Notes under the pieces: generated by a model
The model's input: only the letters and a program-made list of their open reading frames with translations
Database searches by the model: none
Told to the model about the DNA's origin: nothing
IMG/VR virus record: IMGVR_UViG_3300027367_000006
Location: 1-31,923 of that record
Strand: one strand, 5' to 3'
DNA from: a virus
Taxonomy: Duplodnaviria > Caudoviricetes
DNA length: 31,923 nt
In this document: positions 1-11,264 of the stretch, piece by piece
How the letters are laid out: every line of letters begins with the position of its first letter
Position numbering within the stretch: the first letter of the stretch is position 1
Program-made: the position numbers and the translations under genes

Positions 1-582
1 CTAGATGGCTTTAAAGCTATATCAACCAATACAATGACAAATGAATACTGCATCAAACAGAATGCATCTACTAGAAAAGATAACATTTGTACCGTTTGTT
101 ATTCACATACAATGTTAAAAAGCTACCGCAAGAATATGCAACCAGCATTGCAAAGAAATTCAGAGGCGTTAGCTAATAGAGTTTTTGATATGGATTTGTT
201 GCCTACAATATTAGATGCATTCTTTAGATTTAACGCACACGGGGAACTAATAAACCTTACCCATTTAGAAAACTTAGTAAGGATTGCCAAGAAAAACCCG
301 CATTGTAACTTTGCATTGTGGACAAAACGCAATGATTTAATTGTCAAATACTTTAAGAATAGAGACAAACCGAAAAACTTTATTCTAGTATATTCAAATC
401 AAAAGGTTGGTACGGTTATGACAAAACCGCCTAAGCATTTTGATAGAACCTTTAACAATGTGCTAGAACATGAACATAAAGAATTGCAAAATTGTACTGG
501 TCAAAAGTGCAAAGACTGCAGACTATGTTATACTTTAGATAATGGTGTGGATACTATTGTAGAGATGGTAAAGAAATATTAA
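1..582 (+). CDS. Cys-rich Gp88-like / radical-SAM-like Fe-S protein, 5'-truncated by the window edge
   Basis: Frame is open from base 1 (LDGFKAISTNT before the ATG at 34). Motifs C-x12-C-x2-C-Y, FFRFNAHGE, LWTKR and C-terminal CTGQKCKDCRLCY resemble phage Gp88-type proteins. Confidence 0.55.
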   Translation, partial: LDGFKAISTNTMTNEYCIKQNASTRKDNICTVCYSHTMLKSYRKNMQPALQRNSEALANRVFDMDLLPTILDAFFRFNAHGELINLTHLENLVRIAKKNPHCNFALWTKRNDLIVKYFKNRDKPKNFILVYSNQKVGTVMTKPPKHFDRTFNNVLEHEHKELQNCTGQKCKDCRLCYTLDNGVDTIVEMVKKY

Positions 583-4023: not shown

Positions 4024-4235
4024 TGCAAGAACTTTTAGAATATGATCCTTTGGTATACATAACAGCCAGTATATATTTCTTGGGTGTTGTTAATCACTAC
4101 GTGCTTATGAATACAATACACATAATACTCGAAGCACCAAGAGATTCCACAGCAATGCGTATTAAAGCTATCTTGTGGCCTTGGGAATTAACACTATGCT
4201 TGTGGGCTACATGGCAAGACAGGGATTACGAATGA
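4023..4235 (+). CDS. Small membrane protein, 70 aa
   Basis: GGAG RBS; coupled on both sides (TGATG, ATGA); hydrophobic segment LVYITASIYFLGVVNHYVL and ILWPW motif. Confidence 0.7.
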   Translation: MQELLEYDPLVYITASIYFLGVVNHYVLMNTIHIILEAPRDSTAMRIKAILWPWELTLCLWATWQDRDYE

Positions 4236-5128
4236 AAATATTAGCAATGGACATTGAGACTGACGCATTGGATGCTACTAAGATACATGTCATCTGTGCT
4301 CAGGATGTTGACACCAATGAGAAGTATCAGTTCCTTAATGTATGTACAATACCTGAGGAAAGAGAAGCTTTCTTTCTACTGTGTCAACAGACAGATAAGT
4401 TTATATTTCACAATGGGATAGGGTTCGATGTTAAAGTAATCAACAGACTGTTACAACCTAACCTGATTAACCCAAGTGATGTCATTGACACATTGATCAT
4501 GTCAAGGCTTATAGACTACAGCATCAAGGGTGGTCACAGTCTCAAGGCATGGGGTCAAAGACTAGGTGAGTTTAAGATTGGGTTTGATCAGTTCGAAGTA
4601 TTGACACAAGAGATGGTTGACTATTGTCATCAGGATGTTGAGGTTACAGTTAGACTATACAATAAGTTTAAGTCTAGTATCTTTGACCCTGATCTACAGG
4701 ATGCCATCAAGTGTGAACATGACATACAAATCTTATGTGAAGAGATGACAGATGCAGGGTTCTACTTCGAGAAAGATAAAGCTGAACACCTCTTGGATGA
4801 GGTTGAGCTACGCATGATAGAATTAACTGAAAGTTTCCAACGTGATTTCCCACCACAATTAGAAGAGGTGAACAGGATTAAGTACCGAAAGAAACAGGAT
4901 GGTACTACGATGGCAAGTGTAAAGAAAGCACAAGAGAAATACTTTAAGACAACAGTTGATTGGTCAGTTAACCCACCCGACTTAGTGTGCTACGATTGGA
5001 TAGAGTTTAATCCAGCATCACCTAAGATGAGAATAGAAAGACTATGGGAAGCTGGTTGGCAGCCATATGAGAAAACAAAGGGACACATACAATATGATAG
5101 AGAACAAAAACAAAGATCGTGGAGATAA
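4232..5128 (+). CDS. polA: DNA polymerase family A, N-terminal part (3'-5' exonuclease plus first half of thumb)
   Basis: ExoI MDIETD, ExoII HNGIGFD, ExoIII YCHQDV, thumb FNPASP...EAGWQP; start at ATG 4232. Confidence 0.92.
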   Translation: MKILAMDIETDALDATKIHVICAQDVDTNEKYQFLNVCTIPEEREAFFLLCQQTDKFIFHNGIGFDVKVINRLLQPNLINPSDVIDTLIMSRLIDYSIKGGHSLKAWGQRLGEFKIGFDQFEVLTQEMVDYCHQDVEVTVRLYNKFKSSIFDPDLQDAIKCEHDIQILCEEMTDAGFYFEKDKAEHLLDEVELRMIELTESFQRDFPPQLEEVNRIKYRKKQDGTTMASVKKAQEKYFKTTVDWSVNPPDLVCYDWIEFNPASPKMRIERLWEAGWQPYEKTKGHIQYDREQKQRSWR

Positions 5129-6125
5129 GTTTGCACGTTATGGTTGGACATTATCTGAGGCTAACCTTGAGACACTGCCTGATGAAGCACCTGCAGGTGG
5201 TAAAAGATTAGCTGAGTGGTTGACACTTGAAGGTAGGAGATCATCGTTGGTTGAATGGCTAGGACATTGTGGTGATGACCACCGTATACATGGCAGGTTC
5301 ACCCATCTTGGTGCATGGACAGGACGTATGGCTCACTCAGCACCTAACCAAGCTAACATACCATCTGAGTTTCATGGTACACCTAAGTCAGCTGTTGAGG
5401 AAGTTAAGGCTAGGTATGACGGACAGTTCCGTGCCTTATGGGGTGTCGAGAAAGGTAACTACCTAGTGGGTACGGATGCTGAAGGGATTCAGCTGCGAGT
5501 ACTTGCACATCTAATGAAGTCAGAAGAATATGTGGATGCTATTGTGTCAGGTAAGAAAGAGAACGAGACTGACATACACAACCTGAACAAGAAAGCATTA
5601 GGTATGTCACACATAACAAGAGATGATGCTAAGACTTTCATCTATGCATTTTTACTAGGGGCAGGTACAGCTAAGATAGCTCAGATACTACGTGTCAATC
5701 AACGTGAGGCAAGTCAATGTGTTGAGAACTTTATGCAATCAATCCAAGGGCTTGCTAACCTAAAGAAGAAAGTTATACCACACATAGCTAAACGTGGTTG
5801 GTTCAAAGGTATGGATGGACGTAAGGTTCTAGTACCATCTGAACATAAGACACTCGCAGGTATGCTGCAGAATGGTGAGTCTGTCATCATGAAACACTCA
5901 GCACTACAGTGGGTGCGTCAGGCTAAGGATAAAGAGATAGACTTTAAGCTTGTCACATGGCCTCATGATGAATGGCAGACTGAGGTGTGTGGTAATTATG
6001 CAACAGCTGAGGAGTTAGGGGCTATGCAACGTCAATCTTTTGTTGACATAGGAGAGAAGTTTAATATGGTATGCCCATTAGCAGGGTCAACTGACATCGG
6101 ACGTAACTGGAAGGACACTCACTAA
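5067..6125 (+). CDS. polA: DNA polymerase family A, C-terminal polymerase part (+1 frame; start uncertain, ATG 5067 or 5094, or frameshift)
   Basis: TGRMAHSAPN, motif A DAEGIQLRVLAH, motif B RDDAKTFIYAFLLGAG, motif C PHDEWQ, terminal GRNWKDTH. Confidence 0.92.
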   Translation: MRKQRDTYNMIENKNKDRGDKFARYGWTLSEANLETLPDEAPAGGKRLAEWLTLEGRRSSLVEWLGHCGDDHRIHGRFTHLGAWTGRMAHSAPNQANIPSEFHGTPKSAVEEVKARYDGQFRALWGVEKGNYLVGTDAEGIQLRVLAHLMKSEEYVDAIVSGKKENETDIHNLNKKALGMSHITRDDAKTFIYAFLLGAGTAKIAQILRVNQREASQCVENFMQSIQGLANLKKKVIPHIAKRGWFKGMDGRKVLVPSEHKTLAGMLQNGESVIMKHSALQWVRQAKDKEIDFKLVTWPHDEWQTEVCGNYATAEELGAMQRQSFVDIGEKFNMVCPLAGSTDIGRNWKDTH

Positions 6126-7884: not shown

Positions 7885-8047
7885 TCGTGCTCTTGTCCAA
7901 AATTATGGGTTAGAACTTCTCCTTGAACAGAACGAAATATCAGAAGAGTTTGTGGTATCATGGCTTGTGGAAGAGAAAAGAATTGATGTCGAAGATTACT
8001 TTAATCTAGATGCAGAATTAGAAGAGTGGAAGAGGATAGAGGAATGA
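7862..8047 (+). CDS. Hypothetical acidic protein, 61 aa
   Basis: ATG 7862 after AAGGTG; ATGA overlap with the MazG-like gene. Confidence 0.7.
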   Translation: MFDFDSKIRALVQNYGLELLLEQNEISEEFVVSWLVEEKRIDVEDYFNLDAELEEWKRIEE

Positions 8048-8373
8048 GTAAAGTAAAAACATTAGATGAGTATCAAAGGGCAGCTGCAACCACAGCTATA
8101 TACCCTGAGAATAGAGCATTAGAATATTTAAGTTTAGGTTTGTCAGCTGAGGTTGGTGAGCTTACAGGTAAGTTAGCTAAGTGGTATCGTAAAGATGAGA
8201 TGGCATACCCACATGGTGACGTATTAGATGAGCTAGGTGATGTACTGTGGTTTGTCAGTGAGTTTGCTAGGCAACATAACACCAGCTTATCTAAGTTAGC
8301 AAATAGGAATATTAGTAAGTTGTCAGATAGATATGAACGTGGTGTTCTTAAAGGATCAGGAGATAAGAGATGA
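8044..8373 (+). CDS. mazG: MazG-like nucleotide pyrophosphohydrolase
   Basis: YQRAA...LGLSAEVGEL...DELGDVLWF...NISKLSDRYERGVLKGSGDKR; start at ATG 8044. Confidence 0.85.
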   Translation: MSKVKTLDEYQRAAATTAIYPENRALEYLSLGLSAEVGELTGKLAKWYRKDEMAYPHGDVLDELGDVLWFVSEFARQHNTSLSKLANRNISKLSDRYERGVLKGSGDKR

Positions 8374-8561
8374 AAGCATTCGGACGTTGGTGGTATAGGT
8401 TTATTAACTACATGATTACATGGCAGCTACATAGAGATGCAGTTAAGCATTTAAATAAGTTGACAGATAGGGAGTTAAAAGATATAGGTCTTACTCGTGG
8501 AGAAATTGATCGTATGATCTGGTTCAAAGAAGACAAGAAAGATAGAGGGACAAAAGAATGA
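8370..8561 (+). CDS. DUF1127 (YjiS-like) small protein
   Basis: HLNKLTDRELKDIGLTRGEI matches the LxxLxDxxLxDIGLxRxxI signature. Confidence 0.85.
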   Translation: MKAFGRWWYRFINYMITWQLHRDAVKHLNKLTDRELKDIGLTRGEIDRMIWFKEDKKDRGTKE

Positions 8562-10453
8562 ACAACTACTTACCAACAGATTACCAAGCATTTATACATA
8601 AGTCACGGTATGCTAAATACTACGAAGGTAAAGGCCGTGAGTCTTGGGGCGACACAGTAGATAGGTACATGGATAATATTGTAGGTAACTTAGCTGACAT
8701 AGTTACCAAGAAAGAAATCAAAGAAGCTATACTAAACTTAGCTGTTATGCCTAGCATGAGATCATTGATGACAGCAGGTAAGGCTGCAGAACGTGACAAT
8801 ACATGTATGTATAACTGTTCATACTTAGCTGTCGATGATGTTAAGGCATTCGATGAGGCTATGTTTATTCTACTGTGTGGTACAGGTGTTGGGTTCTCAG
8901 TTGAACGTCAGTCAGTACAGAAGCTACCTGAAGTACCAACCTTATTTGTCAGTGAGACTAACATAGTTGTCAAAGACAGTAAGGAAGGTTGGGCTAAGGC
9001 TCTACGTCAGATGATCGCATTACTTTACAGTGGTGAAATACCAACATGGGATGTATCTAAAGTTAGACCTGCAGGTGCACCTCTTAAAACGTTTGGTGGT
9101 AGAGCATCAGGACCTGCTCCATTGGTTGACCTGTTCACCTTTGTCATCAAGACATTTAAAGATGCACAAGGACGTAGGCTATCCTCTCTTGAGTGCCATG
9201 ACATTATGTGTAAGATAGGCGAAGTAGTGGTGGTAGGCGGTGTACGCCGTAGTGCTATGATTTCATTGAGTAATTTATCAGATGACCGTATGCGTCATGC
9301 TAAGTCAGGTTCATGGTGGGACAACGATCCACAACGAGCATTAGCTAACAACTCTGTGTCATACACTGAGAAGCCTGACAGCTTATCGTTCATGAGAGAA
9401 TGGATGGCCTTAGTTGAATCAGGTTCAGGTGAACGAGGTATCTTCAACAGGCAAGCATCTAAGGTACAAGCTGCTAAGAATGGTAGGCGTGATGCTGACC
9501 ATGACTTCGGGACTAACCCATGCAGTGAAATAATTTTAAGACCGTCACAATTCTGTAACTTAACAGAGGTGGTTGTAAGAGCAACAGACACACTAGACAC
9601 CTTAAGTGAGAAGGTAAGGCTTGCAACTATCTTAGGTACTATTCAATCTAACTACACTAAGTTCCCATACTTACGTAAGGTCTGGAAGAATAACACCGAA
9701 GAAGAAAGACTACTTGGTGTGTCGTTAACAGGTGTCATGGATAATCCATTGATGACACTCAAAAACAAAGGATTGGAGAAGACTCTTGACCATCTTAAAC
9801 AAATCGCCGTTACTACTAATGCTACTTGGGCTGAACGCCTTAATATCCCTGTCAGTACTGCTATCAGCTGTAATAAACCAAGCGGTACTGTCAGCCAATT
9901 GGTTGACTCTAGCAGTGGCATTCATGCTCGTCACTCAGCCTATTATATTAGGACTGTTCGTGGAGACAACAAAGACCCGTTGACACAATTCATGATTGAC
10001 CAAGGTATTCCTAATGAGCCAGATGTAATGAAGCCAGATGCTACAACAGTATTTAGTTTCCCTATGAAAGCTCCTAGGGATGCTGTGGTTACAGCTGACA
10101 TGACAGCCATTGAACAACTTGAGATGTGGTTAGCTTATCAACGATCATGGTGTGAACACAAACCATCTGTTACAATTAATGTTAAGAGTGATGAGTGGTT
10201 TGAAGTAGGAGCATTCGTATACAAACACTTTGATGAGATGAGTGGTGTGTCATTCCTACCGTTCAACGAACATACATACCAACAAGCACCATACCAAGAT
10301 GTTGACAAAAAGAAATACTTAGAGACACTAGGTCAGATGCCTAACAAGATTGATTGGTCATTACTGTCAGATTACGAGAACGAAGACAATACAGCTGGAA
10401 GTCAGACAATGGCATGTAGTGGTGACGTTTGTGAGATGGTAGACTTAACTTAG
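8558..10453 (+). CDS. nrdJ: Class II adenosylcobalamin-dependent ribonucleotide reductase (monomeric RTPR type)
   Basis: PSMR, YNCS, GTGVGFSVE, GGVRRSA, TNPCSEI, KPSGTVSQL, C-terminal ACSGDVCE; no ATP-cone and no adjacent class I beta subunit. Confidence 0.92.
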   Translation: MNNYLPTDYQAFIHKSRYAKYYEGKGRESWGDTVDRYMDNIVGNLADIVTKKEIKEAILNLAVMPSMRSLMTAGKAAERDNTCMYNCSYLAVDDVKAFDEAMFILLCGTGVGFSVERQSVQKLPEVPTLFVSETNIVVKDSKEGWAKALRQMIALLYSGEIPTWDVSKVRPAGAPLKTFGGRASGPAPLVDLFTFVIKTFKDAQGRRLSSLECHDIMCKIGEVVVVGGVRRSAMISLSNLSDDRMRHAKSGSWWDNDPQRALANNSVSYTEKPDSLSFMREWMALVESGSGERGIFNRQASKVQAAKNGRRDADHDFGTNPCSEIILRPSQFCNLTEVVVRATDTLDTLSEKVRLATILGTIQSNYTKFPYLRKVWKNNTEEERLLGVSLTGVMDNPLMTLKNKGLEKTLDHLKQIAVTTNATWAERLNIPVSTAISCNKPSGTVSQLVDSSSGIHARHSAYYIRTVRGDNKDPLTQFMIDQGIPNEPDVMKPDATTVFSFPMKAPRDAVVTADMTAIEQLEMWLAYQRSWCEHKPSVTINVKSDEWFEVGAFVYKHFDEMSGVSFLPFNEHTYQQAPYQDVDKKKYLETLGQMPNKIDWSLLSDYENEDNTAGSQTMACSGDVCEMVDLT

Positions 10454-10545: not shown

Positions 10546-11004
10546 ATGGCAGTTAAAAGACAATTCAGTAGGGCATTGTATGAGGCATATGATGGTAAGG
10601 CTAAAGACAGATTAGTTGAGTACCTCACCAGTGTAGGCCATACTATTGTCAGTACTGAAGAGAACTTCAATGTGGATGTTGTATCTCAGAAAGGTGACTA
10701 CACCTACTTCAATGAGGCTGAGGTTAAGACAGGTTGGAAGGGTGATTGGAATACTAACTGGGCAGAGATAAGATTACCTGAACGTAAGGGTAGGCTTGTC
10801 AAACTATACAAAGAAAAGAATGGTGTGCTTAACTTCTATATCTTCAGGGCTGACATGCAGCAAGCATGGAGAATTAAAGACACCTTACTAACAGAAGAAA
10901 GCCTGAAGGAAGCTAAGGGTAGATACATTACCAAAGGTGAGAAGTTCTTCCATATTCCATACACAGATGCTGAATTAATTAACTTAGAGAAAGAAGATGT
11001 ATAA
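10546..11004 (+). CDS. Putative PD-(D/E)xK nuclease-fold protein
   Basis: NVDVV...NEAEVK spacing resembles the (P)D...ExK active site; AAGGGA RBS. Confidence 0.5.
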   Translation: MAVKRQFSRALYEAYDGKAKDRLVEYLTSVGHTIVSTEENFNVDVVSQKGDYTYFNEAEVKTGWKGDWNTNWAEIRLPERKGRLVKLYKEKNGVLNFYIFRADMQQAWRIKDTLLTEESLKEAKGRYITKGEKFFHIPYTDAELINLEKEDV

Positions 11005-11264
11005 TGGCTAAATGGAATTTAGATGCTGTACGTGATGAGGTAGAGGATGATGTTGTCAACCAACCACCACACTACGGTAACGGTAGGATAGAATGCATAG
11101 AGTATATGAGGGACAACATGGATCACATGATGTTCATGGGTTACCTAGAAGGTAATGCTAAGAAGTACATGCATAGGTACAGGTACAAAGGTAAACCTGT
11201 AGAAGACCTAAGGAAAGCCAAATGGTACTTAGAATATCTTATACGAGAGATGTCACAAGAGTAA
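11004..11264 (+). CDS. DUF3310 protein (T7 gp1.7 nucleotide-kinase-related)
   Basis: DVVNQPPHY...IECIE...GNAKKYMHRYRYKG...EDLRKAKWYL. Confidence 0.88.
   Translation: MAKWNLDAVRDEVEDDVVNQPPHYGNGRIECIEYMRDNMDHMMFMGYLEGNAKKYMHRYRYKGKPVEDLRKAKWYLEYLIREMSQE

Follow-up and report, generated by a model that had tools for sequence, protein, structure and literature searches.

In the Klenow fragment of Escherichia coli DNA polymerase I, Glu710 and Tyr766 have been called universally conserved, and passages of the same study (PMC3715850) describe E710Q as a slow mutator with a Kd2 for correct dTTP of 230 μM (0.83 μM in the wild type), Y766A as a mutator, and the 710-766 hydrogen bond as having a minor role. 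For closing on rUTP, K2 is given there as 0.056 for E710Q, 0.083 for the wild type and 0.16 for E710A. According to passages on KlenTaq, E615, N750 and Q754 bind one shared minor-groove water (PMC6125688). Split genes for T7-like PolA are already known from the accessible text of PMC10201439. No description of a natural Gln710 PolA was found in the literature passages covered, with the logos and supplements of PMC10201439 and subscription papers on E710 mutants lying outside that scope; term searches in the accessible text of two virioplankton PolA papers (PMC9069017, PMC6302109) likewise returned no discussion of positions 710 or 766. Here we describe a T7-like PolA in which both residues are replaced, encoded by a stretch of 31,923 nucleotides of caudoviral DNA (IMG/VR record IMGVR_UViG_3300027367_000006; the whole stretch is hereafter the window). 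It is a real and widespread variant of a known enzyme that has apparently gone undescribed.

A Veravirus-like cobavirus with a divided polA gene

The window represents 31.9 kb of a genome type of roughly 40 kb and is organized as two oppositely transcribed arms, with replication genes on the left and virion genes on the right, in the order seen in the ORF layout of ICBM2. It encodes a class II ribonucleotide reductase (PF21995, PHROG 367), the cobalamin-dependent RNR that serves as a criterion for Cobavirinae, and its polymerase is 81% identical to that of CRP-5, 73% to that of ICBM2, 60% to those of CRP-4 and CRP-13, and 44% to that of SIO1, with the tree placing PolA nearest to Veravirus members. 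Judged from these sequence comparisons, the phage is a Veravirus-like cobavirus. Other criteria for the group are the lack of a phage RNA polymerase, whole-genome clustering with the genus, direct terminal repeats and a roseobacter host. The largest left-arm ORF does not exceed 631 aa in the window, which is a partial genome, or in its relative G002, which was classed as having terminal repeats. The portal gene of G002 (L232 7280-10560) is represented by two ORFs of 322 and 184 aa, and that of the window by a single ORF of 581 aa. Two AT-rich stretches of the early region (583-1028 and 1655-2152) contain no ORF of at least 60 aa and probably hold small genes.

The polymerase is encoded by two overlapping ORFs:

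4232..5128, + strand: 5′ half of PolA, 3′-5′ exonuclease domain and start of the thumb (Pfam DNA_pol_A_exo1; aligns to T7 residues 1-357)
5078..5083, + strand: Shine-Dalgarno-like AAGGGA, within the exonuclease ORF and 10 nt before the ATG at 5094 (putative function)
5094..6125, + strand: 3′ half of PolA, remaining thumb, palm and fingers (Pfam DNA_pol_A, E 2.9e-32; T7-like predicted fold)

The break falls in the thumb, after about T7 residue 357, and the acidic exonuclease motifs at 4250-4264, 4409-4429 and 4622-4636 are intact in the alignment to T7. The polymerase ORF opens at 5067, with 5094 as the likely start; the equivalent ATG is conserved in all 63 related loci with overlapping halves, and purine runs similar to AAGGGA are found in overlapping relatives. 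These 63 belong to a set of 80 loci, in which a further 16 have the two halves 332-692 nt apart, one is without the exonuclease part and none is fused; in T5S1, the primase and small genes lie between the halves. Among cultured phages, polA is split with an overlap in CRP-5 and ICBM2 and is one fused gene in CRP-4, CRP-13, SIO1 and ICBM1. A programmed frameshift was rejected for the clade on account of the 16 loci with separated halves and the genes intervening in T5S1, and a sequencing error or dead gene was rejected because the residues discussed below and the split recur across 80 loci and in cultured phages. We regard polA as truly divided into an exonuclease and a polymerase gene, not as the product of an assembly error.

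Replaced residues of the nucleotide pocket

The polymerase half carries the following motifs, assigned by alignment:

5319..5327, + strand: TGR motif, intact; Arg87 corresponds to T7 R429 and E. coli R668
5475..5498, + strand: motif A, DAEGIQLR; catalytic Asp137 intact, Gln142 (CAG 5490-5492) at the site of T7 E480 and E. coli E710
5631..5660, + strand: motif B, KTFIYAFLLG; Lys189 and Tyr193 (762 site, TAT 5643-5645) intact, Leu197 (CTA 5655-5657) at the site of T7 Y530 and E. coli Y766
5856..5879, + strand: motif 6, in a helix spanning residues 259-288 of the predicted model; Ala264 for Asn (T7 N611, E. coli N845), Gln268 kept, and a new Glu271 (5877-5879) at the site of T7 G618 and E. coli A852
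5964..5972, + strand: motif C, His-Asp-Glu, intact

Motifs A and B align without gaps to T7 DASGLELR and KTFIYGFLYG, with the reference positions (T7 E480, Y526, Y530; E. coli E710, F762, Y766) read from database records. A preliminary description of this DNA had pointed to the CAG and CTA codons as changes of both the E710 and the Y766 equivalents and to a Tyr at the 762 equivalent, as in T7 (Y526); the sequence and the alignment to the T7 and E. coli enzymes bear out all three readings. The gene split and the motif-6 changes are features absent from that description. Because Gln142 and Leu197 stand in place of the Glu710-Tyr766 pair that serves as a criterion of family A polymerases, the window enzyme is a variant. 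The remaining machinery is conserved: R87, D137, H171, R185, K189, H300, D301 and E302, corresponding to the R668, D705, H734, R754, K758 and H881-D882-E883 sites, are invariant in alignment A1, and E271 is invariant in a 142-row alignment. The AlphaFold model of the polymerase half has a mean pLDDT of 92.4, and its best fold match is T7 polymerase.

The Gln/Leu pocket in cobaviruses and the wider clade

Gln and Leu at the 710 and 766 sites were found in all 80 IMG/VR loci and in seven of nine GenBank records, and thus do not reflect an error in a single contig. They are common to the cultured phages SIO1, ICBM1, ICBM2, CRP-4, CRP-5 and CRP-13; the GenBank records of CRP-804 and HTVC103P have Glu and Tyr instead. 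Since the Gln/Leu combination occurs in fused and split polA alike, the pocket change and the split are independent. Across 71 distinct DNA variants, both positions change only synonymously (CAG in 64 and CAA in 7 for Gln; five codons for Leu).

For the wider clade, the best 150 of 574 cluster representatives (50% identity; E up to 1e-30) were considered. These comprise 115 Gln/Leu, 19 His/Asn, 5 Gln/Phe, 1 Gln/Met and 3 Glu/Tyr enzymes, besides one Lys/Leu fragment with an odd motif A and six Gln fragments without motif 6. The 19 His710/Asn766/Glu852 representatives form a subtype within the Gln/Leu clade, often with Phe762 and in three cases also with Gln849 changed to Leu (examples are P0152, P0154, P0162, P0170, P0180 and P0219, and the loci L094 9986-11857 and L158 10001-12151). 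Two further variable sites were observed among P0123-P0272: TGR reads THR or TQR at position 86 in most of the clade, the window keeping TGR, and the residue two before Leu766 (position 195) is often Trp.

Among 120 close homologs, 119 carry the full residue set of the window enzyme. The sole exception, P0116, combines Gln/Leu with Asn and Gly in motif 6, that is, without the new Glu; its identity to the window drops sharply after about residue 255 and its last 100 residues resemble a Glu-type enzyme, a pattern as might be expected of a chimera or recombinant.

A motif-6 glutamate accompanies the change at position 710

Within the best 150 of 574 representatives, all 141 non-Glu enzymes with motif 6 in view have the new Glu at 852/618, three residues after the conserved Gln, and have lost Asn611/845, and the three Glu-type representatives have Gly and Asn at these sites. 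No Glu852 was seen in any of the 66 T7-like sequences of the Glu type that show all sites. More distant phages carry the same Glu next to various residues at 766 and 845: DSS3_VP1 and DSS3_PM1 read Gln/Tyr/Asn/Glu at 710/766/845/852, CRP-7 and Kolga Gln/Phe/Asn/Glu, and Vibrio phage 1.253.O, RIO-1, CVT22 and Klyazma Gln/Phe/Val/Glu, with Slicky01, GX1 and VpV262 being Glu/Tyr. Of 120 DSS3-like (Naomviridae-like) homologs, 118 are Gln/Tyr/Asn/Glu and the other two break frame at motif B.

In the enzymes compared, the steady partner of E710Q is the new motif-6 Glu, not Y766L. An obligate coupling of Gln710 and Leu766 was rejected, Gln710 being found also with Tyr766 or Phe, and the retention of Tyr766 in many Gln710 enzymes, both of dU-DNA Naomviridae and of bacteria (see below), marks Gln/Leu as a lineage feature. 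The preliminary description had proposed a co-evolved nucleotide pocket and a survey of Q710/L766 covariation across phage PolA. The survey reveals no fixed pairing, given Tyr766 in the Naomviridae-like and bacterial enzymes and Phe in CRP-7, Kolga, RIO-1 and CVT22. Co-evolution itself is supported, with the motif-6 Glu as the partner and Y766L as an optional addition (Gln occurs with Tyr in 118 of 120 Naomviridae-like and 72 of 73 bacterial enzymes).

Bacterial Pol I and enzymes with two glutamates

Bacterial Pol I belongs to another subfamily of PolA. A scan of GTDB for bacterial motif A with Gln returned 93 loci, of which 73 were used after setting aside 8 that are not PolA and 12 without motif 6 in view. 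Glu852 is present in 71 of these 73 E710Q enzymes, the exceptions being L280 and L285, and Tyr766 is kept in 72. Most of the GTDB cases come from one group of Alphaproteobacteria MAGs and hence represent few events. Pol I with Gln710/Glu852 and Tyr766 kept was seen in Ca. Enterousia and related Alphaproteobacteria MAGs (GTDB loci L234-L326). In the matched part, the bacterial E710Q sequences share 42-50% identity with E. coli Pol I, as against an E value of 4e-6 for the window enzyme versus Klenow; a scan of viral sequences found no bacterial-type Gln motif A.

The reverse scan, for motif 6 with Glu, covered 120 metagenome loci from 3 of 64 collection parts and 4 viral loci, yielding 87 PolA, 53 of them with motif A in view. 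Glu710 is kept in 49 of the 53 and replaced by Gln in four. A strict two-way swap between 710 and 852 was therefore rejected, double-Glu enzymes being common. Glu852 is tolerated beside Glu710, while Gln710 is nearly always found with Glu852, so the dependence is one-way; the occurrence of Glu852 beside E710 also suggests that Glu852 arises first and permits the change at 710. In 38 of the 49 double-Glu enzymes (L327-L446, bacterial-type Pol I), motif C reads His-Asp-Ser, with Ser for Glu883, so that Glu852 may have more than one use. Glu852 is accordingly not specific to loss of E710 and may serve another role in these 38 enzymes without Glu883. The resulting pattern is nested: Glu852 occurs with Glu710, Gln or His at 710 almost never occurs without Glu852, and Leu766 is seen only with a non-Glu residue at 710.

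Number of origins

In trees built with the diagnostic columns masked, the Gln/His enzymes form three groups around the T7-like Glu clade, and His/Asn enzymes appear in about four to five places. AU tests on 59 chosen rows did not reject a single origin for Gln/His (p 0.44) or for His (p 0.059), and a test on 31 rows did not reject a single origin of cellular Gln (p 0.14). Repeated origins of His/Asn are not claimed, the trees scattering these enzymes but the AU test giving p 0.059. Only two independent pairs were found. From the nearest relatives of each, the phage and the bacterial cases would have separate origins.

These results bear on the reading that the changes are linked by descent only, with Glu852 having a separate structural role and Gln710/Leu766 being tolerated for reasons elsewhere in the protein. 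It is in line with the AU tests, which rejected a single origin neither for phages nor for cellular enzymes, with the frequent company of Glu852 with Glu710 and Ser883, and with the two bacterial Gln710 sequences without Glu852. However, both T7-like phage enzymes and bacterial Pol I show the same pairing, and these are as far apart as the above identities and E value indicate, and none of the 66 Glu-type T7-like sequences has Glu852. We hold linkage by descent alone to be decidedly improbable.

Genomic neighbourhood and the nucleotide pool

Four genes singled out in the preliminary description accompany polA in the window, as assigned from domain or profile matches:

34..582, + strand: Cys-rich GP88-family protein, the 'Fe-S protein' of the preliminary description, putative metal binder; patchy among relatives
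8026..8373, + strand: MazG-like pyrophosphatase, genomic context
8558..10453, + strand: class II (B12) ribonucleotide reductase, NrdJ; context, not tied to the pocket
11004..11264, + strand: DUF3310 protein, genomic context

From such neighbours, it had been suggested that a non-canonical nucleotide pool, with dU, a modified base or, when B12 is limiting, rNTPs, has shaped the pocket. The presence of NrdJ, MazG and DUF3310 in the window would fit this suggestion, as would the failure to find ThyX in five near-complete relatives (G001-G005) and the Gln710/Glu852 combination of the dU-DNA phages DSS3_VP1 and DSS3_PM1 (L221 11830-13815, L222 2830-4815). However, CRP-804 combines a canonical pocket with MazG, DUF3310 and an NrdJ that shares 78% identity with that of the window, and with the same cassette next to a canonical pocket the argument from the neighbourhood fails. 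Of five Glu-type genomes, three match the window NrdJ (one weakly), one MazG and three DUF3310, and of five Gln-type phages, only CRP-7 matches this NrdJ, with DSS3_VP1 annotated as having class I RNR subunits. In CRP-7, the match (MK613349 35555-38170, W07) falls into two segments with about 560 nt between them, a pattern suggestive of an insertion within the gene. Of four near-complete close relatives, three lack the GP88 protein, which was matched in two of five and one of five genomes in two scans.

Other evidence also speaks against an unusual pool. Thymidylate synthase (ThyX) is annotated in CRP-5 and ICBM2, and a putative thymidylate synthase in Kolga. dCMP deaminase was not found in any of the four near-complete relatives, the control DSS3_VP1 being positive, and the dU phages keep Tyr766. 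Among 17 ORFs scanned in a complete relative, the sole DNA-modifying match was a methyltransferase. According to the accessible text of PMC6775973, cultured cobaviruses are lytic and both Nextera XT and PacBio libraries were used to sequence ICBM DNA, whereas dU-DNA failed in Nextera in a passage of PMC8323127. The evidence does not support a link of the pocket to B12 limitation or to an unusual pool of nucleotides, given CRP-804 with the same cassette, NrdJ in one of five Gln-type phages, and the patchiness of GP88; an adaptation of the pocket to such a pool is highly improbable.

In three other loci, Gln/Leu and His/Asn polymerases are preceded by a cluster of phiEco32-like glutamine amidotransferase, COOH-NH2 ligase and amidoligase genes (L093 2905-7884, L094 1489-6018, L158 1117-7291). 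Downstream of the polymerases lies a dATP/dGTP diphosphohydrolase domain, and in L158 a UDG-family gene (9321-10004) directly precedes polA.

A likely compensated pocket

Arg668 pairs with E710 in the canonical pocket. Since Klenow E710Q alone binds dTTP poorly, a replicative phage enzyme with this change would need a compensator, and the pocket is likely compensated. For the two-gene cobavirus PolA with Gln710, Leu766, Ala845 and a new Glu852, we consider it probable that the Glu replaces the charge of E710 and would leave the enzyme able to copy ordinary DNA. Residues 264, 268 and 271 span no more than 60 degrees around a single helix in the predicted model; Glu852 would thus share the helix face of Asn845 and Gln849 and could restore charge near Arg668 and the minor-groove water. 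Gln at 710 would keep the bulk that blocks the ribose 2′-OH. Once residue 710 carries an amide, its hydrogen bond to Tyr766 would cease to matter, and 766 might drift to Phe, Leu or, together with His, Asn. The likely order of events would be A852E, then E710Q, and then Y766L and loss of Asn845 in the cobavirus-type branch.

A working pocket might still have truly altered properties, that is, less accurate base selection or less effective exclusion of rNTPs than in T7 polymerase, tolerated through the proofreading domain and host repair. Ribonucleotides might likewise be present in the DNA at a low level. E710Q and Y766A are both mutators in Klenow (passages of PMC3715850), Glu710, Tyr766 and Asn845 have all disappeared from the cobavirus-type branch, a combined loss beyond that in any bacterial or Naomviridae Gln enzyme seen, and the exonuclease motifs are intact. 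However, the pocket residues are under strict purifying selection, Gln710/Glu852 is carried by bacterial Pol I, and E710Q did not favour closing on rUTP according to the same passages, which makes altered properties rather unlikely. The Gln/Leu combination probably represents a second functional form of the nucleotide pocket, not a sign of unusual DNA.

A bolder scenario, which we consider unlikely, is that the cobavirus Gln/Leu/Ala/Glu pocket, with its His/Asn offshoot, is a second and measurably different nucleotide-selection architecture (for example, with relaxed base or sugar checking) across a very large radiation of marine phages. Gln710/Glu852 might then be ancestral to T7-like polymerases and have eased the move of Naomviridae to dU-DNA, the Glu-Tyr pocket of T7 being a reversion.

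Textbooks present E710 and Y766 as universal residues of fidelity, and the E710Q change cripples Klenow. In abundant, cultured marine phages, the replicative polymerases have other residues at both sites. The observed pattern singles out A852E as a likely suppressor, with the double-Glu state as a natural stepping stone, and together these separate a steric from an electrostatic role of the gate. They also bear on polymerase engineering and on virome studies in which position 762 is the sole basis for interpreting PolA.

Comparison with known systems

The same two positions are changed in the Klenow mutants E710Q, Y766A and Y766F, which, as presented in passages of PMC3715850, are single laboratory changes without Glu852, unlike the combined natural set of the window enzyme; these passages hold no tested counterpart of Leu766. 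DpoZ of Z-DNA phages, compared by its description in part of PMC10201439, also has a natural change at the 766 site, but to Phe, not Leu, and is tied to 2-aminoadenine genomes. Naomviridae PolA (DSS3_VP1, DSS3_PM1) shares Gln710 with Glu852; unlike the window enzyme, it keeps Tyr766 and Asn845 and has Phe762, and these phages encode dCMP deaminase and class I RNR. S-SBP1-like split T7-type PolA is similar in its fission into overlapping exonuclease and polymerase ORFs with a new start codon but belongs to another phage group, compared here by the description in part of PMC10201439 and not by break point; in the 16 relatives of the window noted above, the halves lie apart. Cultured cobaviruses and kin (CRP-5, ICBM2, CRP-4, CRP-13, SIO1) carry the same Gln/Tyr/Leu/small/Glu set as the window, CRP-5 and ICBM2 also its split, and the pocket goes unmentioned in the literature passages on these phages. 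The best match to the window enzyme is T7 DNA polymerase (gp5; cluster 5 in the accessible text of PMC10201439), with E 3e-28 and, in Foldseek, E 8e-21 and TM 0.76-0.80. Tyr762, the intact Asp, Arg, Lys and His-Asp-Glu residues, an active-looking exonuclease and an adjacent primase-helicase are shared with gp5, whereas E480Q, Y530L, N611A, G618E and the division of the gene after about T7 residue 357 set the window enzyme apart.
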